In this document: in pieces, positions 15,413-25,918 of the stretch
Layout: every line of letters begins with the position of its first letter
How positions within the stretch are numbered: position 1 is the first letter of the stretch
DNA from: Lophium mytilinum
Taxonomy: Eukaryota
Length of the DNA: 64,000 nucleotides
Direction of reading: 5' to 3'
NCBI GenBank assembly: GCA_010093605.1
Contig: MU004187.1
Span: 2,098,882 to 2,162,881 of the forward strand
Program-made: the position numbers and the translations under genes
Notes under the pieces: generated by a model
The model's database searches: none
What the model was told of the DNA's origin: nothing
The model's input: the letters and a program-made list of their open reading frames with translations, nothing else

Positions 15413-16487
15413 ATGAGTGATAGCACCCTCGCCACCGTCAACAACCGCGCAGATGTCGAGGCCGGAAAGCCCGAATCCGGCTTCTTCCCGGACTGGCCAG
15501 GATTCCGTCACTTCTTCCGCAACTCACCACTGCACGCCGCCATAGAAATGTGGACTGTCTGGCTTGTAGGCGCCGTGTCCCTTTATCTATTTCTTCAACC
15601 TCCAGCCTTCCTACGGCCGCCGCTTTTTCAAGTATATCCAGACGGAACGGTCCCAGGTGACATTACCGTCCCTTATACTCCCGAAATCATCTCGACCATT
15701 GCGTCCGCCGGCATCGCGACGGGTGTCCCCCTCCTGGTGATAGTTCTCGTTGAATTCACCTGGATTCGAAGCTTTCGTAGCTTGATGGCTGCTGTACGTA
15801 CCCCCTTTGCGTTACTCTTCATACGTCACGTCCCTTTCTTACTGACAATGCGTATAGATACGGGGACTCCAAATGGCCCTACTCTACACCACTTTCGCCA
15901 CTGTTGTGATCAAGACGACTTTTGGTAGCCTTCGCCCACACTTCGTCGACGTCTGCGCCCCTCTGCCTCCTCTAAGTGGGACTGGTTTTGACAAAGACTG
16001 GTATAACGCCACAGTCTGTACCGGAAACGACGCTTCGCGTATCCGAGATGCCCAGCAATCATTCCCGTCAGGACACGCATCGAGCGCTTTCGCTGCCGCG
16101 ACGTACCTCATTCTGTGGCTTAATGCAGTCTTGAAAGTCTATGGCCCCTACCAAACGCCCGAGTGGAAGTTCCTCGCACTCCTAGGACCACTGCTCGGCG
16201 CCACCCTGATTGCACTGAGCAAAGTGGCTGATAGCTACCACCACGCGTCGGATGTTGTTGCTGGTGCCGCCATTGGGACCATTATCGCACTAGTGGCGTA
16301 CCGGGGTGCACATGCGAGTATTTTTGACTGGAGGTACGCATCTTCCACTCTTTTTCCAGCTTTGGTGGTTGCTAATACTGCTTGTTCGCGAAGATACAAC
16401 CACATGCCGCTGAGCCCGAGCAAGCCTTTCGACTACGAGACCGACTACGTCGACGTCCGCGACCTCCGCTTTGGAACCTCAGCGTGA
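15413..16487 (+). CDS. PAP2-family lipid phosphate phosphatase (DPP1/LPP-like), 3 exons
   Basis: KTTFGSLRPHF (C1), SFPSGHAS (C2), SKVADSYHHASDV (C3); hydrophobic helices; introns at about 15794-15858 and 16333-16393. Confidence 0.88.
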
Positions 16488-16703: not shown

Positions 16704-16969
16704 ATGGCCCCCTCTATGTCGTTAAATATGTAACAATGCCTAGACTTGTAACGTAAGTGTAAGTAATCTCTAGATGTAATGGCCCCCTCTACGTCGTTGA
16801 ATATGTGAACAATGCCCACAATTACTACGTAAGTGTAAGTAACCTCTGCATGCAATGGGCCCTCTACGTGGTTAAATATGTAAACAATTCCTAGACTTGC
16901 AATATAAGTGTAAGTAACCACTGCACGTAACGGCCCCCTCTACGTAGTTGATTGTATAAACAATACCTA
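16704..16969. repeat. Tandem array of about 3.5 copies of a 75-76 bp unit
   Basis: Units start at 16704, 16779, 16855 and 16930 (atggccccctctacgt...aacaatgcctagacttg...taagtgtaagtaa). Confidence 0.9.
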
Positions 16970-17013
16970 CCGAAGCTAGCACGTTCTTATTTTAGGTAGG
17001 TGTCTACCAGTTC

Positions 17014-17418
17014 TTGCTTGCTCAACGCCACCGTCAGGGGTGCCCCCATTAGCAAGTGCCAACTACGCCAAAAGGTAGTCGAAAACTCCGTTCCGTCAGG
17101 GGCGCCCCCACTGTGAGGTGTTTGGCACCGTCTGAAGTCCTCTGGCGCTGCCAACATTGGGAGATAGGATGTCAAAATTCAGGAGGTTCAGATCGTATTG
17201 CGTTGACGTGGGTGGGTCCAGTGTATGTTTGCTGCCGTCTGAAGGCCTCTAAAGGTGCGAAAAATTGCCGACTTCATCAAATGATAGTTCAATTTCTATT
17301 ACATTGACCTTCACATTGGGCACACAGGCACGAGTGTTTGCTCGCTCAACACCACTGTAAGGGTGGCCCCCATTAGCAAGTGCCGACTACGCCAAAAGGT
17401 AGTCTAAATCTCGTTTCC
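17014..17418. repeat. Pair of ~80-bp direct repeats (17014-17094, 17338-17418)
   Basis: Shared core cccccattagcaagtgcc(a/g)actacgccaaaaggtagtc with one mismatch. Confidence 0.85.
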
Positions 17419-17428
17419 TTGGCCAACA

Positions 17429-20400
17429 CTACTGTACGCGGACCTTCGAAGTGACATCCCTAACCCGCTCTCCCCTGAAGAACACGCTGACTACCAGCGC
17501 CGGGAACGTAATCTCAATCTCATACTCAACGAGATACCAAATCCCCTGATCATTCCTAAACTTCCGAAACTCGGCATCCGGATTTCTTCTCGTGAAATCC
17601 GTTCTGATCTCCGCGGCACACTGGACGATACATTGCTGAGAGCCTTGAGGGTAATACAAGTATGGATTCGGTGTGCCCCACTCAAGCGTCGGCAACCCGC
17701 GATCGTCCTCGAACAGGTAGATTTTCCCGGACGGGTCCAGCGTCAGGTTTGCATCAGCTGCCCACAGCTTATCCACCAGCACGAACGGGTCGACGTGGTC
17801 GAACTTGACCATTTTGGACGTCGGAATGCGTATTTTGTGGCCTGATTGGAGTGGCGCGCCGGCACTGAGTACTATGCAGACACAGTTGTTGCAGCGGTCT
17901 TGGTCGGGGCACCTCATTCGGAAGCGTTCGGGGTGCACGCCGGGGATGAAAAAGTCGGCGACCGAGAGGTAGTAGCTCTGCTGAGAGTATGCGCTGGCTT
18001 TCGGCAGGATGTCGGAGCTGAAGTTAGTCAGTCTGTCTGTGAGTCCGGCAGTGACCAGGCCCTTGACGACCGTTGCTTCGCTATCCATCGGTCGCACAAC
18101 GGTGCAATAGTTCCGTGGCATACGCTTTTTGATTTGCTGGAAGAGGTACTCGTTGGCCCCGAAAGAGCCGCAAATTAGCACGTACTGTTGTTGAAAACTT
18201 AGATAGTCGCTGACAGAGAGGGCTTGGACTTGTACGTTACCTGCAGATTGATGTTGCATGCTTGGACGGCGATGACTTGATTATTGATCAACTCTAAAAT
18301 CCTCTCGATGACAGGAGTGAAGCATCCCAGTATCTCTTCGTTGGTGAACGTCATGTATCCATCATCGATGTCTGCTTCCACATAGTCGCGCTCGATCCCG
18401 ACGTCGGTCGCCCACTTCTGGCCATTGTTCCTAAAATCGTCCCTGATACGGCTATCGAACTCTATGATGCTCTTTGCGTACACCCTGCCTGCAGTTTTAG
18501 ATCCATCTGGCAATTTCATTTTACGGACCTTGCTTCGCAGGATGTTGGCGAAGTTGCGATCCACCGCGGTATGTCTAGATGAAATATGTGTTAATAAACG
18601 GCTTGTGCTGCTAGGGTCGATTTACTCACCCGCAAGCATCACCACTACTGCCCGTACATTTCCGGACCTTGAAAGGAGAATTGCTGCGCACTTCGAGCGC
18701 AACAAGGTCCACAAAACTCTTACCGCAATCTACGATCAATATTCCGTCGTGATTCTTCGAATCGAGTAGCCCGGATCTGGTACAATAATGTGCTGACGCT
18801 TCCGGGCCTGGGATGAGAGTCACTCGGGGATCGTGAACATCTTGCACGTATCCAGCCTGTACGATAGCTTTCTTGAAAGCCGTTTTTGCACCTTCTGTCC
18901 ATATTGGAGGATGAGAAAAGTAGTATCGAACGATTGATGCATCGTTAGGAATTCGTGGACCGAGCGATTTCATTAAGGCGACCAGAGCGGCTTCGCGCAG
19001 GCGGGAAAGATAGTCGCCGACTAGATCTACAGCCGACTTTCCAGCTGGAAGGGGCGGTAAGGATTTGGCGTCGAGGTACGGATTTCCACCTTCCAGCTGC
19101 ATATACACGTGTAACCATTCTGCTTTAGTTGTTCCAATTTTGGGCTGTCCATTTGGGCCGAGAGCGTCGGCAGTGTCCAAGCCCCAACCTACAACATTCG
19201 AGGAAATATCGTAATATATTGACGATGGAACCCTGGGCTATTGATTCGTTAGCTAAAATGTGCTAGACAACAAGGAAGCCGTCAGAGCCTACTTTCGTAA
19301 TTAACCCAGCTCCTGGCCATTCCGTTATGATGTCTTCTCTAGCTTCAGTGTCAGTTGCATATGCAAAAGCAACCGACGAGTGCGTGGCCCCAAAGTCGAT
19401 ACCAATTATCAAGTGGGCGTTTGACTTGGCTGACGAGCTTTGATAAATCTGTGGAGCCGATGCAGGTTGATTTGAAGTCGTGCTTCCGTCATTCTTTGTG
19501 ACCCAAGGCATCGCCGCTGGCGCTACTACCTGCGATACTGGTGAAGGTCGATTCGATGACGCGTTCCGGTCGTTCTTTGTGACCCACTGTATTGGTGACT
19601 TGATGGGTGACGGCAGCTGTGAGGAGTTTGGCGAAGCGGTACCCGGCGAATAATGCGATGCAGGTCGCGTAGATGGCCGAGGATCATTGGGCTGGCTCAA
19701 GAGGAAATCTGCGGCCAGTTCCTCGTTCTTGTCGAAATTGAAATAAGCCTGGATCACGGGATCTAGCTCGAAACCGAGGCCACGTAGCTAGAGATATTAG
19801 AGATCAAAAAGAGTAAGAAAGGGAATAGTGAACTGACTCGCTCGATGGCGACCCGTTCCTCTTCTGTCACACTGATGGTGTGTGATCCAGGAGGGAGCTC
19901 GGCGACCTCGTCGATATCTTCAGCAAGAAGCTGGAGGAATTGCTCTGGGTTAGCGGCAATGAGTTTTGCCAGCTGAGGGTTTACGGTGGCTGTTTGCTGC
20001 AGAATCGGCTCTAACATATGGGGCTGTTGCTGAACAACTCGACAAAACTGCTGGAAGTGAGGATCGCTGCGGAGGAACTCGATGCTGCTACCACCAAGCG
20101 CTTGAGAAGTCGTAGAACCAGCCTCGAATGGATTTACAGGGTTTTTTGAGAGCACGGCCGACGGAGTATTTGTAGCGGATGGCGAACGTGTATGTGAATT
20201 GTATGGATTATTGATGTGAGGATTAGGAGATGACGATGGTGTTGAAGCGGATGGCGATCGTACATGGGGGCTGCTTGGATTTAGGTAAGGATTAGTAGAA
20301 GACGATGGCTTTCGGGACTGGATCTGTGCAGGGTTTGAACTGCCAAAAGGCGTAAGGGATGAGCTAGGCTGCTTATATCCTGGTCGGGCAGGCTGAGATT

Positions 20401-22158
20401 GAACTGATCTGGCTGGTGAGGGTTGACGAGGAGGAGGAGATGTTGGCCCTGTTGATCTTATAGATGTTGAATCTGGGGTGTGAACGGTACCGTCCCAGCG
20501 CTTTCCGGGGGACTCTGCAAGGGGACTATTTGCGGGAGGTAGCCCTAGACGGCTGCGGAGAGGATTTCCCGGCTCCTGGACTGACGGAACCAGGAAGTTT
20601 CCTGCTGCACTGGTCGTGTCAGAAACAATGTCCTCGTGGACTAGATCGCGCAAAGGCCTTGCTAAGTATTGGAGAAACCCAGCGTCAACCTCGACGTCGT
20701 ACTTTGCAGGTAAGAAGCCACGGCAGCCCTCAGCTTCAGCCATGTCACCCTTTCTTTCGTGAATGAGCGCGAGAAGTGCCATGGATTCGTGAAATGGTGC
20801 ACTTTCTTTGCCCCCAAGCCTCCGTCTCCCCATCAGCGCCTTCTTACAGTATCGGATAGCGGCATCATGTGCGTCGCCTTGAAGCTTTAGAAGAGCTAAG
20901 GCATGGAGACCGTCATATGCCAGCGGCTCCTTGACCTTTTTAAGGGTAGTGAGGCTAGCAAGAACATTTTCGGCATCTCTCCATCGCGCTTGTTTGCCGT
21001 ACGCGTATGCTTGCATCAACCTGATTTTGGAGACCCCACCTGGCAAGTCGTCTGTTGAACGGCTCACGACTTTGCATAGGAATCTCTCGGCATTCGGATA
21101 GTCTCCGGCTGTGAAACTTGATATAGCGAGGTCATTGAAGTTCTTCACAAAGTCTCTCTCCATATCGGAGTCCGGATCGGAGTCTTCTAGCTCGACATCT
21201 TCGGTCGTACCGCTAACTGATTCATTGGCTTCTGTGCCTTCTTCTTCGATTGTAGGAGGAGGTATCCAGTTTTCAATGCGCTGGGCCTGATCATCGCTCA
21301 AAGGATCGCCGTAAACAGAACCGCCCCATATCGTACCCTCGCCTACAACTGTGCTGGCACTGGAATGGAATGATTCTGCAACACGAACGAATTGTCTCAA
21401 GTTGCGTGAGATGCGTTCGTTATCCTCTTGCACGTCGGAAGATGGCGGCTCGGAAGAATCGTTTCGAGACCTAACCGCAACTTCTACTCTGCCAATTTGG
21501 GTTTTAAGATCACCAAGAACCCGGGACATTGATTCTTGGGACGAGCCGCTTCTTAGCAACAAGAGTCTAGAATGATGTGAGCACTCCCCGAATGAAAATA
21601 TACGCATACATATGAGACGACGGCAATCAAAGAGCTTACACGTTGATCATTTGGAAGGCGGATTGCATTGCACTGTTATGGGAATGTACCTGCTGCCGGA
21701 AGGCCGTGATATCTTTCATCATCATGTTCAACTTTATCGACATTGTCGGCTTCCGGAGGAACCCTCTCCCCAGGAAGCTGGTCTTCTGCACCTCTACGAG
21801 CCGCTTGTCCAATTTCCCTAGCGTAATCTGGCAGTCGTCCAGCGACCCTCGGACTGTGATCCATAGATCCCGATCTCCAGTTTTCTGAGTAGTCGCAAGA
21901 AGCGGATTCTGCTTCCAGGAGTGGCCGACTGCATTGAGGGCGCGTTGAAGACCATTTATCTCTTCGCATAGGCCAGCTACACTATCGTCTACGCCTCGGG
22001 CATCGTCTATGAAGGTGTAAAGTATCCCTGAGACCTTTTCACTGCGAATCAGTCTGACGCTCGATACGCTGGACACTCCAGCACCTCGGGTGGGTACTGA
22101 CCTTGATACAGAGGCCAGCGATGCCTGCGGCGGACGATGCAATGGACAAGGGATCCAT
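17429..22158 (-). CDS. Chimeric 1457-aa protein: HeLo-like fungal N-terminal domain + TPR-like repeats + Ser/Pro linker + Rad23-type XPC-binding/UBA + HSPA12-type Hsp70 domain
   Basis: Exons 22158-22102, 22034-21640, 21566-19838, 19787-19293, 19237-18630, 18574-18241, 18184-17429. All six introns are GT-AG (50-73 nt) with compatible phases; total 4374 nt with no internal stop. Markers: MDPLSIASSAAGIAGLCIK start; LEPILQQ..NPQLAKLI..VTEEERVAIERLRGLGF..VIQAYF..DKNEELAADFL; IIGIDFG..EDIITEWPGAG..GYMTFTNEEIL. Confidence 0.85.
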
Positions 22159-22483
22159 CGCAGCATTTTACCGGCAAAGCTTCTGGCGGAGGACAAGTTG
22201 TCCATGAAGTGACTGCGAGAGCCGCCTTCCACGGGCGCCATGAGGGGCGCTTCCAGATCGCGAGGCTGAGTTCTCGGTTGTCTTCTGCATTTCGAGTTAG
22301 GATAGTTCTAAACCTTGGAAGCTGGGATATTCACGTGATGCTGCTCTACGGCATACTCCATGAGTTCCCCCGCTGCAGCATCCCGTACCAACGCGTCTTG
22401 CATCGCGTTCTTGGAAACTTTTCTACAGCACGCCCGAGATACTCAATCTCTGGGCACTCAACCTCTTATTGTCCCCGTTCGCG

Positions 22484-25303
22484 ATGATTCAGAAGCCATT
22501 TAGACCACCGCTGCTGACCAGGAAGCCGGCCGAAGCTCCCCGACCAGAGTTCAATCACGCAGCAGATACAGAACCGCCCTCCAAAAAGCGACGCATCTCC
22601 TCCAACGATGACGATAGCCAGTTCGATGCTGTCACTACAACTCTTTCAAAACCACATAACCACGTCAACACAGCCCGAAAGCCATTGGTTCCGGTCCGCA
22701 ATCCTTCGAGCTTGAGCAGCGCTCCAGCAAAACCGTCTGGAGGAGTAGAGGGATACTATGTAGTCTTGTGGCGCAAGTTCACGATGAAGAAAAACAAAAC
22801 CTGGGACGGTGACGGAGTCCTTGCCGTGTTCAACGGATACGCATATCTCCAAGATATCTCCGGAAGGGAGCTTGGGAAGACCGCCTGCACCTCGCCATTA
22901 CTACCAGGCTCCACCCTTTCCGTGGGAGGAAAAGATGTCGAGGTTGACTCTTTAATCTCGAAGGAAGACTTCCTCGCTGGCAAGCCCTTTTTGGGCAAAA
23001 TGTCGACTGCTGCAGCGCCAGCGCCAGTGTCAGACCCAGAACGCAGACCACTTCCAAAACCCAAGCTTAAAGTGAAAGAGGAGAAGATAGCAGCCCGCCA
23101 AGTAGAGGTTCTGAATGTTGCCGCCCCAGCCAGCAAAGCTACCCAGAGCAAGTTCAAGAATCCTTTGCTATCCAATACTGTCATGACCAAGCCTGTCGAC
23201 AAAGAGACTCCCCTTCCCCGGCATGATCCAACTACAGAAAACGCCCTCGTCATGAAAAGACCGACTATACGTCCGCAGGGCAAGCAAATTGTGGACGTGG
23301 TAGTAGATCCTGTTCTCTCCAAGCATCTCCGGGACCATCAACGTGAAGGCGTCCAGTTCCTGTACGAGTGTGTGATGGGCATGAGATCTAACGGCGAAGG
23401 GGCCATACTTGCGGATGAGATGGGCCTAGGAAAGACTTTGCAAACCATCGCGCTACTCTGGACTCTACTCAAGCAGAATCCAATCTACCAAGAAGGTCCC
23501 GTGGTGAAAAAGGCACTCATTGTGTGTCCCGCTGGACTTCTGAACAATTGGCGAAGAGAGTTTAGAAAGTGGCTTGGAAATGAAAGAATTGGAGTCTTCG
23601 TTGTTGAAGGGAAGAACGTTCGCCTGGCTGACTTCACTAAAGGAAAAGCCTACAGCGTTATGATCATTGGCTATGAAATGCTTCGTAACGTGCAGGAACA
23701 ACTCAAGAAGGGTAGCGGGATCGATATTGTCATCGCTGATGAAGGCCATCGACTTAAGACCGCGAACAACAAGGCAATGCTAGCAATACAGTCCCTTAAC
23801 ACGGACCGAAGGATCATACTTTCAGGGACCCCGCTGCAGAACGATTTGAGCGAGTTCTACACGGCTATCGACTTCGTCAATCCAGGCTTATTAGGAAAGC
23901 GGAACGTGTTCAAGAAGGAATTTGAGAACCCAATCATGCGAGGTCGGCAACCAGAGGCAACCGCAAAGGATCACGAAAAAGGTGAAGCCCGATGGCAGGA
24001 ACTCGTCTCGATTGCAGGCCAATTTATGATCCGCCGCACTGCCGATGTGCTGGCGAAGTATCTGCCGCCCAAGAGCGAGTACATCTTGTTCTGCAAACCA
24101 ACACCTGTTCAGTCAACCGTTTACACGAACGTGCTAAAGTCTCCGTTTTTCTCCGCAGCTCTTGGGAACACTGAAACCGCTCTGCAACTCATCAACATCT
24201 TGAAGAAGGTGTGCAACAGCCCGACGCTTCTCAAAGCTAAAAATCCCGACGATGCTCCTTCAGAGATGCTAGCGAGCTTCACAGCTGCCATTGCACCTTC
24301 AGTACTCTCATCCAATCGGTGCAGCTCCAAAATCAGGGTTCTCGACGCCTTGCTACATCGCATCCATACGAACACCGATGAGAAGGTTGTCATAGTCTCG
24401 AATTACACGTCCACACTAGATATCATCGGTCGCCTCCTTTCTTCTCTGGACTATGCGTTCCTCCGGCTGGACGGCTCCACTCCAGCGTCGAAACGCCAGG
24501 ATCTTGTGGAACGCTTCAATAGGACTAGCCAGAAGAGTTGTTTCGCTTTCCTGCTCTCCGCCAAATCCGGCGGTGTTGGCCTTAATCTGATTGGCGCCTC
24601 CCGACTCGTTCTATTCGACTTAGACTGGAATCCCGCCACCGACCTTCAAGCCATGGCGAGGATACATCGCGATGGACAGAAGAAACCATGCAAAATCTAT
24701 CGTTTGCTTGTGCAAGGCGCTTTAGACGAGAAGATCTTCCAGCGACAGGTCACCAAGCAGGGTCTCGCGGACGCTGTTGTCGACAAAAAGGCCAGCGCCG
24801 CCAGTTTCTCCCACGAGGAGCTAAGAGACTTGTTCAGCTTGGACGAAAAGGATCACTGCCAGACACATGACCTGATTGGATGCACATGCGAGGGTAAAGG
24901 TCATGATGCCCCTATCGTACCCATCACTTCCGCGGAACTGGTCTTAGACACCGAACCTACAGATGTGGTTGATAGCGATGAGGAACTTCCAGACCTACCA
25001 ACTCTGCTGAGAGCATCTCAGGTCAACATGGAAGAGCAAGAGCAGCGACTGAAAGAGCAAAGAGAGGCGAGAACCAAGCTAACAACCGACGGAAAGCCAA
25101 AATTGAGGTCTCTCATGCAGTACCAGCACCTGGATCCGCGCTACCTGTCCCCCACGAGAGCAGAATCAGAGTCGGAAGGAGCTGTTCGAGAAGACCATGT
25201 CGACATCGAGACGCTTATGGATGATGACATTTTGCTTGATATTCTGAAAGCAGGAGATGAGCATTGCAGCATCGGCTTCGTTTTTGCGAAGATGTCGTCT
25301 TGA
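22484..25303 (+). CDS. RDH54: SNF2-family DNA translocase Rdh54/Tid1 (RAD54B-like)
   Basis: LADEMGLGKTLQ, DEGH, SGTPLQN, LSAKSGGVGLNL and QAMARIHRDGQ motifs; N-terminal WRKFTMKKNKTWDGDG motif typical of Rdh54/Rad54B. Confidence 0.9.
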   Translation: MIQKPFRPPLLTRKPAEAPRPEFNHAADTEPPSKKRRISSNDDDSQFDAVTTTLSKPHNHVNTARKPLVPVRNPSSLSSAPAKPSGGVEGYYVVLWRKFTMKKNKTWDGDGVLAVFNGYAYLQDISGRELGKTACTSPLLPGSTLSVGGKDVEVDSLISKEDFLAGKPFLGKMSTAAAPAPVSDPERRPLPKPKLKVKEEKIAARQVEVLNVAAPASKATQSKFKNPLLSNTVMTKPVDKETPLPRHDPTTENALVMKRPTIRPQGKQIVDVVVDPVLSKHLRDHQREGVQFLYECVMGMRSNGEGAILADEMGLGKTLQTIALLWTLLKQNPIYQEGPVVKKALIVCPAGLLNNWRREFRKWLGNERIGVFVVEGKNVRLADFTKGKAYSVMIIGYEMLRNVQEQLKKGSGIDIVIADEGHRLKTANNKAMLAIQSLNTDRRIILSGTPLQNDLSEFYTAIDFVNPGLLGKRNVFKKEFENPIMRGRQPEATAKDHEKGEARWQELVSIAGQFMIRRTADVLAKYLPPKSEYILFCKPTPVQSTVYTNVLKSPFFSAALGNTETALQLINILKKVCNSPTLLKAKNPDDAPSEMLASFTAAIAPSVLSSNRCSSKIRVLDALLHRIHTNTDEKVVIVSNYTSTLDIIGRLLSSLDYAFLRLDGSTPASKRQDLVERFNRTSQKSCFAFLLSAKSGGVGLNLIGASRLVLFDLDWNPATDLQAMARIHRDGQKKPCKIYRLLVQGALDEKIFQRQVTKQGLADAVVDKKASAASFSHEELRDLFSLDEKDHCQTHDLIGCTCEGKGHDAPIVPITSAELVLDTEPTDVVDSDEELPDLPTLLRASQVNMEEQEQRLKEQREARTKLTTDGKPKLRSLMQYQHLDPRYLSPTRAESESEGAVREDHVDIETLMDDDILLDILKAGDEHCSIGFVFAKMSS

Positions 25304-25868: not shown

Positions 25869-25918
25869 NNNNNNNNNNNNNNNNNNNNNNNNNNNNNNNN
25901 NNNNNNNNNNNNNNNNNN
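25869..25918. other. Assembly gap (50 N) flanked by an identical 47-bp sequence
   Basis: catctcccactcccgccgcctctcagcagcacacaaagggagccatg occurs at 25822-25868 and at 25919-25965. Confidence 0.95.

Follow-up and report, generated by a model that had tools for sequence, protein, structure and literature searches.

A probable pseudo-ATPase of Hsp70 type at the end of a HeLo-like fusion protein in Lophium mytilinum

Organization and transcription of the gene

The window analysed here is a 64,000-nucleotide stretch of the Lophium mytilinum genome (contig MU004187.1, positions 2,098,882 to 2,162,881), and all coordinates below are positions within it. On its minus strand lies an intron-bearing gene (Table 1) whose 3' part, at 17429-19415, encodes an Hsp70-like module which, judged from its residues, is probably a non-hydrolysing pseudo-ATPase domain. 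The protein carries, in order, a HeLo-like/PigL_N domain, a TPR region, a Ser/Pro-rich linker, XPC-binding and UBA domains, and the Hsp70-like module, which makes up the last 605 of the 1457 codons, from LIIGIDFG to the final codon. All six introns of the splice model, which was built by coordinates, are of the GT..AG type and 50-73 nt long; the module's own three measure 55, 55 and 56 nt. Searching the window by tblastn with the database proteins P0006-P0008 found only one Hsp70-like copy.

The HeLo-like assignment is firmest in P0277, a Mytilinidion resinicola protein that is 94% identical to this region and matches PF17111 at E 1.1e-8 (35.1 bits, the cutoff being 27.2); the 19 residues of exon 1 are identical in it. 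Exon 3 has a clear XPC-binding match in Pfam (E 9.5e-20) and a TPR_12 match (E 2.8e-4) that is below the cutoff of that family. No Pfam match to NACHT or NB-ARC was found in any exon translation or in the fusion relatives described below. One open frame runs throughout exon 4 from the UBA domain into the nucleotide-binding domain (NBD). A stand-alone Hsp70 gene was considered and is ruled out, since the frame is unbroken from the UBA exon and a sequenced contig (below) links the HeLo-like through the Hsp70-like exons. Two copies of a WVTKND motif lie in the linker before the NBD, both of them kept in the M. resinicola protein P0006; such repeats may form a short linear binding motif.

Table 1. 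Features of the fusion gene and its surroundings in the window
Feature	Position	Strand	Remarks
Whole coding region	17429-22158	-	7 exons, 1457 codons plus stop at 17429-17431; without internal stop
Exon 1	22102-22158	-	19 codons, begins MDPLSIASS at 22158; start of HeLo-like/PigL_N domain
Exon 2	21640-22034	-	Remainder of HeLo-like/PigL_N domain; weak PF17111 match, E 0.0015
Exon 3	19838-21566	-	TPR (~20669-21151), Ser/Pro-rich linker, XPC-binding domain of Rad23 type (19901-20065)
Rad23-like insert	19698-20065	-	XPC-binding plus UBA, between the TPR region and the Hsp70-like module
Exon 4	19293-19787	-	UBA (19698-19787; Pfam E 1.3e-5), linker, start of NBD with phosphate loop 1 GIDFGAT (19383-19403)
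WVTKND copies	19563-19586, 19482-19505	-	Linker before the NBD
Exon 5	18630-19237	-	NBD lobes I/II; His at the Lys71 position (within 19103-19120)
Exon 5 motifs	18899-18916, 18791-18808, 18707-18730	-	SHPPIW, GPEASA and DCGKSFVD, respectively, from the family alignment
Exon 6	18241-18574	-	NBD lobe IIB; parent-like KMKLPDGSKTAGRVYAK at 18472-18522; Arg at the Lys271 position (within 18433-18453)
Exon 7	17429-18184	-	CGSFG adenosine motif (18158-18172), end of NBD (~18035), C-terminal domain like the beta substrate-binding domain (17432-18034), stop
Tandem repeat	16709-16934		Three copies of a 75-nt unit, 3' of the stop codon
Dispersed repeat	17006-17094, 17330-17418		Two 89-nt copies, 84% identical, 3' of the stop codon; the second lies within the transcribed 3' end, where contigs of runs X1 and X3 have loose ends
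PAP2-family phosphatase	15858-16487	+	E 2.3e-25; no evident link to the gene
SNF2-family helicase	22700-24200	+	E 7.1e-72; no evident link to the gene
Assembly gap	25869-25918		Run of 50 N

Four public sequencing runs contain the stretch, and their contigs were compared over 17300-22400. In run X3 a single contig of 4759 nt spans 17300-22017 with 0 mismatches and skips 18185-18240, 18575-18629, 19238-19292, 19788-19837 and 21567-21639 -- exactly five of the six introns of the model -- so that the HeLo-like, TPR/XPC, UBA and Hsp70-like exons are joined in one contig. Because this copy lacks the introns yet is otherwise identical, the gene is best explained as transcribed and the module's three introns as real, with spliced mRNA as the best explanation of the intron-less identical copy. 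The label of X3 as RNA is only a guess, and none of the four runs is on record as RNA; its sample and study differ from those of the probable source run. Sequencing error is an unlikely source of the altered motifs described below, since X3, from a different sample, has the same letters.

For intron 1 (22101-22035) the sole support comes from run X4, in a spliced contig from a related organism; the X4 contigs have 90-97% nucleotide identity to the window, and the spliced XPC-to-UBA junction is present in them too. Within exon 5 (18630-19046) X4 differs from the window at 39 of 417 nt, and within exons 6-7 (17587-18564) at 27 of 922 nt. This pattern is opposite to that in the comparison with M. 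resinicola, in which exon 5 shows the higher conservation, and the X4 exon-5 contig may come from a paralogue.

Loss of catalytic residues

A search with P0006 against 1.84 billion representatives gave 2543 relatives at E <= 0.001, the best 150 of which were aligned with the window protein (153 rows, 152 of them relatives). The family consensus for the nucleotide-binding motifs is DFGTT, TVPAIW, EPEAAA, DCGGGTVD and VGGFG, as a reading of the sequence alone had given it; an error in that consensus is rejected by this alignment. All five changes reported in that sequence-only reading are present in the minus-strand sequence, and the window's residues are rare at those columns in the family. Where the window protein has GIDFGAT in place of GIDFGTT, the position holds T in 77 of 101 relatives and A in 3. 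In SHPPIW, the three replaced family residues are T (114/140), V (92/139) and A (93/139), and in GPEASA the first position is E in 103 of 137 relatives and G in 14. The motif DCGKSFVD departs from G (105/138), G (105/138) and T (100/138), with K, S and F found in only 5, 4 and 4 of 138. In CGSFG the first residue replaces V (79/105) and the third a G kept in 81 of 107, S being seen at this G339 position in 3 of 107. Two further changes were found: the equivalent of the catalytic Lys71 is His (K in 101 of 132 relatives), and that of the ribose-contacting Lys271 is Arg, in a position where K is invariant in 58 intact members.

Residue numbers follow Hsc70 and DnaK and were obtained by comparing a profile of 79 family members with PDB, where 121 Hsp70 sequences were matched (best E 3.7e-20). 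Since the motifs line up in register with those of the DnaK and Hsc70 NBDs, the residue mapping is fixed. In Hsc70 numbering the changes are T13A, K71H, E175G, G202K, G203S, T204F and G339S, plus K271R. With 14 key positions defined as D10, G12, T13, T14, K71, E175, D199, G201-G203, T204, D206, G338 and G339, the window protein keeps 7 (in a wider pocket set, 8 of 15 are changed). In the 96 representatives where 12 or more of these positions could be aligned, the full set is kept in 58, one or two changes occur in 15, and three or more in 23.

In Hsc70, Lys71 is essential for hydrolysis, mutants of Glu175, Thr204 and Thr13 are impaired, and the backbone of Gly202-Gly203-Thr204 cradles the gamma-phosphate. 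The PDB matches include entries with titles indicating Hsp70 mutants, namely 1kax (K71M), 2bup and 1ngf/1ngg/1ngj. Nucleotide-binding residues listed for Hsc70 include G12-Y15, G201-G203, K271 and G338-S340 (PMC2940730). The residues that position or activate the gamma-phosphate in Hsc70 are thus replaced in the window protein and, on the evidence of its sequence, the catalytic machinery is gone; by established Hsp70 enzymology these replacements should abolish hydrolysis, and Hsp70-style ATP hydrolysis by the module has most likely been lost. An active ATPase with unusual motifs, in which other residues do the catalysis, is very improbable: only the fold and the two phosphate-loop Asp residues are kept in its favour, while the equivalents of Lys71 (indispensable in Hsc70) and Glu175 and the Gly-Gly-Thr of loop 2 are all lost, all 14 residues are kept in 58 of 58 intact members, and Pfam HSP70 matches neither the window exons nor P0006.

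PF00012 has no match in exons 4-7 at E <= 0.1 or in P0006 at E <= 1. Searching the PDB sequences by phmmer with P0006 alone gives 0 matches at E <= 1, NCBIfam gives 0 matches for P0006 and exon 5, and PADLOC 0 for P0006, P0009, P0032 and P0051.

Predicted fold

The structure considered here is an AlphaFold2 model of the orthologue P0006, made from a 79-row alignment, to which the window protein is 73% identical and collinear. The model has a predicted local distance difference test score (pLDDT) of 82.8 and a predicted template modelling score of 0.77, and residues 92-703 are confident except for 615-632. In Foldseek it matches full-length ATP-state DnaK, BiP and Sse1 (E ~1e-20), and with VIA-align residues 98-503 are superimposed as an Hsp70 NBD (Z 33, root-mean-square deviation 3.1-3.7 A over ~350 residues). 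Residues 98-700 align with Hsc70(1-554), chain 4-503, and with full-length DnaK and BiP over ~633-640 columns, although the deviation is high (~10.7 A) when the NBD and the beta substrate-binding domain (SBD) are fitted together. The model ends after the beta domain, with no helical lid. The module is thus predicted to be a unit of an actin-fold NBD and a beta-sandwich SBD without helical lid.

The D-x-G is kept in both phosphate loops, and nucleotide could therefore still be bound. Non-canonical Hsp70s such as Ssz1 or Hsp110 are reported to use nucleotide without turnover, and ATP or ADP might similarly serve the module as a structural cofactor or a conformational switch, in which case the pocket would not be empty. 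Besides the two D-x-G motifs, Thr14, Asp199, Asp206 and Gly338 are kept, the P0006 model retains a closed NBD with pLDDT >90 through the loops, and the structures matched include the ATP-Mg-bound Ssz1 ATPase domain (4gni, Z 32.6). Such a role is nevertheless unlikely, as the side chains of Lys/Ala/Ile, Ser and Phe stand in place of Gly202, Gly203 and Thr204 (whose backbone holds the gamma-phosphate in Hsc70), the loop positions, Thr13 and Gly339 vary among the window protein, P0006 and P0025 in a manner that looks like relaxed constraint, and Lys271 is Arg in both the window protein and P0006.

Orthologue, intact relatives and fusion proteins

The only close named orthologue is P0006, an uncharacterised M. 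resinicola protein of 703 residues that is 73% identical over 693 and collinear. Its motifs read DLGPAT, SHPPIW, GPEASA, DCGASFVD and GGTFG, it has His at the Lys71 position, and Lys271 is Arg; the 160-residue fragment P0025 has DCGISFVD. At the lost positions the window protein, P0006 and P0025 vary (K/A/I, A/P, S/T). Since the motifs of P0006 and P0025 are degenerate too, the losses predate the split of these lineages. Exon 5 alone, used as a query, gave only 3 matches among 1958 candidates. The N-terminal 454 residues of the window protein are 94% identical to P0277, against 73% for the Hsp70-like module. In M. resinicola P0277 ('partial') and P0006 are annotated separately, and the Ser/Pro-rich, XPC and UBA stretch is unannotated there.

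The next-nearest proteins form a plateau of 477 at E <= 1e-20. Among the best 120 of these, all 119 besides P0006 have Pfam HSP70, with 45-56% identity; sources on the plateau include Trichoderma, Fusarium, Aspergillus, Alternaria, dermatophytes and lichens, and the names given are Hsp70-like or HSP 12A/12B. An intact orthogroup of Pezizomycotina (for example P0010 and P0167) keeps all 14 key residues, and Pfam HSP70 is matched by 7 of the 7 members tested, including P0007, P0009, P0010, P0012, P0021 and P0167. It has the same layout of NBD and beta domain as the window module, to which it is 47% identical (298/635), but its N-terminus is Gly/Pro-rich and lacks the HeLo-like, TPR and Rad23-like domains. 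In the trees described below, the branches of the intact orthogroup are very short (0.013-0.2), those of the window protein and its stem 0.2-0.35. The module probably arose within the HSPA12-like family of filamentous ascomycetes whose members are named 'Hsp70-like protein', and this highly conserved intact orthogroup is, by sequence, the best candidate for its 'intact parent'. Several orthogroup members (P0009, P0211, P0229, P0238, P0246 and others) are annotated with a C-terminal thaumatin domain; these fusions may be genuine, or a neighbouring gene may have been merged by gene prediction.

Fusions of the same general plan occur elsewhere. Residues 1-454 of the window protein are 40-58% identical to, and collinear with, the N-termini of fusion proteins that include ones from Glonium stellatum, Fusarium albosuccineum and Madurella mycetomatis, and the C-termini of these relatives are Hsp70-like. 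For P0281, P0285, P0287, P0036, P0291, P0032 and P0073 the N-terminal identity is 40-51%, and that of the C-terminal modules 32-45%. Exon 3 is collinear with P0032 (41% identity, E 1e-59). In all eight other HeLo-like–TPR–Hsp70-like fusions examined (P0279, P0281, P0285, P0287, P0291, P0032, P0036 and P0073) the motifs are non-canonical, loop 2 reading for example GPET, GTET, GKGV, GKAT, SITT or GNTA, and Pfam HSP70 is found in none of the eight at E cut-offs of 0.001 or 0.01. Because eight other fusions from various fungi are likewise non-canonical, the window protein belongs to a recurrent class. The Rad23-like insert (window-protein residues ~604-849) is unmatched in the eight.

Trees were made with the key columns removed, using FastTree and IQ-TREE. 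The window protein and P0006 pair with a support of 100 and are nested in a group made up of degenerate or fusion members only, which adjoins the intact orthogroup. Support for this group, 92 in FastTree and 84 in IQ-TREE, is not decisive, and an approximately unbiased (AU) test does not reject the alternative in which the window protein groups with the intact orthogroup (p-AU 0.254). Common descent of the fusions is argued more strongly by the N-terminal architecture they share than by the trees. A second degenerate clade, with a support of 100 and separate from the fusion group, consists of P0046, P0047, P0052, P0053, P0082 and P0099; its members share A or G at T13, G at E175, and GGH, GGQ or GGD in loop 2.

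Pocket, surface and constraint

The sequence-only reading had also held that the non-catalytic stretches stay near consensus, and they do: P0010, an intact member, has KMKLPDGSKTAGRVYAK, GYMTFTNEEIL and VVRPMDS unchanged, and P0167 has DFRNNGQKW. Its wider proposal, that the pocket was lost while the surface was retained, does not hold. Of the columns with a conservation of 90% or more among intact members, the window protein retains 7 of 15 that belong to the pocket or to catalysis and 29 of 43 elsewhere (Fisher p 0.22). By region, identity to P0010 is 60-78% in lobe II (residues 1088-1247), 38-45% in residues 928-1047, and 8-30% in the C-terminal domain, and the parent-like stretches are confined to lobe II. 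Residues 928-1007 (window ~18893-19132), around the lost Lys71 and TVPAIW, are by comparison 85-88% identical between the window protein and P0006; this looks like a surface reshaped on the stem lineage and conserved thereafter, not one retained from the parent. Of the proposed pseudo-ATPase with a retained surface, then, the first half stands -- catalytic residues are lost, the gene is transcribed and spliced, and the orthologue is alike -- and the second fails, the module being only 47% identical to the parent-like orthogroup.

The same reading had counted about 600 codons with three introns as intact, and this is borne out by 605 in-frame codons with no stop and by the X3 contig, which skips each intron of the module exactly. 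In a neutral simulation, 605 codons taken down to 73% identity acquired a mean of 7.8 stops, and 0 of 2000 runs were stop-free. Against the X4 transcript, exons 6-7 show 10 synonymous and 14 non-synonymous changes (24 of the 27 differences, over 306 codons), a ratio of non-synonymous to synonymous substitution rates (dN/dS) of 0.39; the synonymous share of 10/24 compares with 22% expected (binomial p 0.026). The window protein and P0006 agree in 81 of 97 family-conserved and in 241 of 335 variable columns (Fisher p 0.024). These tests, together with the 73% identity of the module as against 94% of the N-terminus, indicate that the constraint on the module is real but relaxed.

It had been suggested that changes spread evenly, with dN/dS near 1, would speak for neutral decay; the partial dN/dS of 0.39 and the simulations speak against decay, while the concentration of changes in the pocket that was expected with this is not significant (p 0.22). 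Decay of the module as a pseudogene, or its persistence as a neutral appendage not yet hit by a stop, would be in keeping with the lower identity between the window and M. resinicola in the module (73%) than over the 454 N-terminal residues (94%), and with the change of one third of the family-invariant non-pocket positions as well. Decay is largely refuted, and we regard it as extremely improbable, in view of the 0 of 2000 stop-free simulations and the partial dN/dS, the exactly spliced transcript, the confidently predicted fold of the orthologue, and the same architecture in fungi as distant as Fusarium, Madurella and Glonium.

Interpretation and relation to known systems

The features by which a pseudoenzyme is recognized are distributed over two proteins here: catalytic residues lost and selection in the window protein, and fold kept in the model of its orthologue. 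We consider it likely that the module is a catalytically dead unit of Hsp70 type, which purifying selection, relaxed but real, maintains for binding or regulation without catalysis. It would bind a ligand or partner without catalysis, and it would control or localise the N-terminal HeLo-like domain.

A number of points weigh against this reading. The loss of hydrolysis is predicted from the residues, and the D-x-G of both phosphate loops, Thr14, Asp199, Asp206 and Gly338 survive. The pocket has not lost significantly more than the other highly conserved columns (p 0.22), and the more radical nature of the pocket changes by BLOSUM62 is a trend only (p 0.13). Family entropy, compared between columns identical and columns differing in the window protein and P0006, gives no significant difference (Mann-Whitney p 0.18), and dN/dS covers the 24 differences of exons 6-7 only, without the motif-bearing exon 5. 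The fold evidence comes from the model of the orthologue and not from the window's protein, transcription is inferred from the exact removal of introns in X3, and the window's own organism confirms only five of the six introns. HSPA12 itself is described as an atypical Hsp70 with no helical lid, with lineage-specific expansion and with a function given as unknown (PMC13580251). The likeness to animal HSPA12A/B is one of description and of the names under which the fungal relatives are entered in databases ('Heat shock 70 kDa protein 12A/12B').

Among better-known proteins, Ssz1/HSPA14 and Hsp110 are non-canonical Hsp70s that work without a normal ATPase cycle, their Hsp70 fold serving to scaffold or to bind partners, and the Ssz1 and Sse1 structures match the P0006 model (5mb9, 4gni, 2qxl). 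These proteins, however, bind ATP (by the title of 4gni) and act within the chaperone network, whereas in the window protein the loop glycines are replaced and HeLo-like, TPR and UBA domains are fused to the module. The XPC-binding and UBA domains stand in the same order as in the C-terminal half of Rad23, but Pfam finds neither a ubiquitin-like domain nor a first UBA in the window protein, and the pair is embedded in another protein.

The HeLo-like domain PF17111 of the N-terminus is one found in cell-death proteins of fungi, and it has been aligned with the executioner domain of MLKL (PMC9815663). Fungal NLR-type cell-death proteins have this N-terminus, TPR, and a conserved head with a fast-evolving tail, likewise seen in the window protein (94% versus 73%), and by analogy the fast-evolving tail and conserved head resemble those of immune-type receptors. 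The window protein differs from fungal NLR/STAND proteins in that Pfam finds no NACHT or NB-ARC in it and its TPR lies before, not after, the nucleotide-binding-type domain. In the available text of the NLR effector-domain survey PMC9815663, 'Hsp70' and 'actin-like' have 0 occurrences; Hsp70-family proteins are reported to occur in prokaryotic conflict systems (PMC7159879). One further scheme, speculative and rather improbable in our estimate, is that the module is an integrated sensor or decoy: a fast-evolving copy of a conserved HSPA12-like protein, tethered by way of TPR and the ubiquitin-binding Rad23-like insert to a membrane-attacking domain of HeLo-like type, which would be set free to cause cell death when a foreign or altered-self ligand binds the decoy, in effect an NLR-like receptor built on the Hsp70 fold. 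The decoy role, which the sequence-only reading had offered beside the pseudo-ATPase, is a conjecture.

Hsp70-fold proteins are usually viewed as ATP-driven machines. The window protein and its relatives point instead to a recurrent, expressed class in fungi in which an Hsp70 fold without catalytic residues is wired to HeLo-like and TPR domains, with the ubiquitin-binding Rad23 fragment as an addition in the lineage of the window protein; in the literature found, with incomplete coverage, there was no description of a HeLo-like–TPR–Hsp70-like architecture or of a fungal pseudo-Hsp70. If the module is a passive scaffold, it would be a well-documented example of a pseudoenzyme, of modest interest. 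If it senses ligands or acts as a decoy, fungal cell-death and non-self systems would gain a sensor of a new kind, and what the conserved HSPA12-like family does would become easier to approach.

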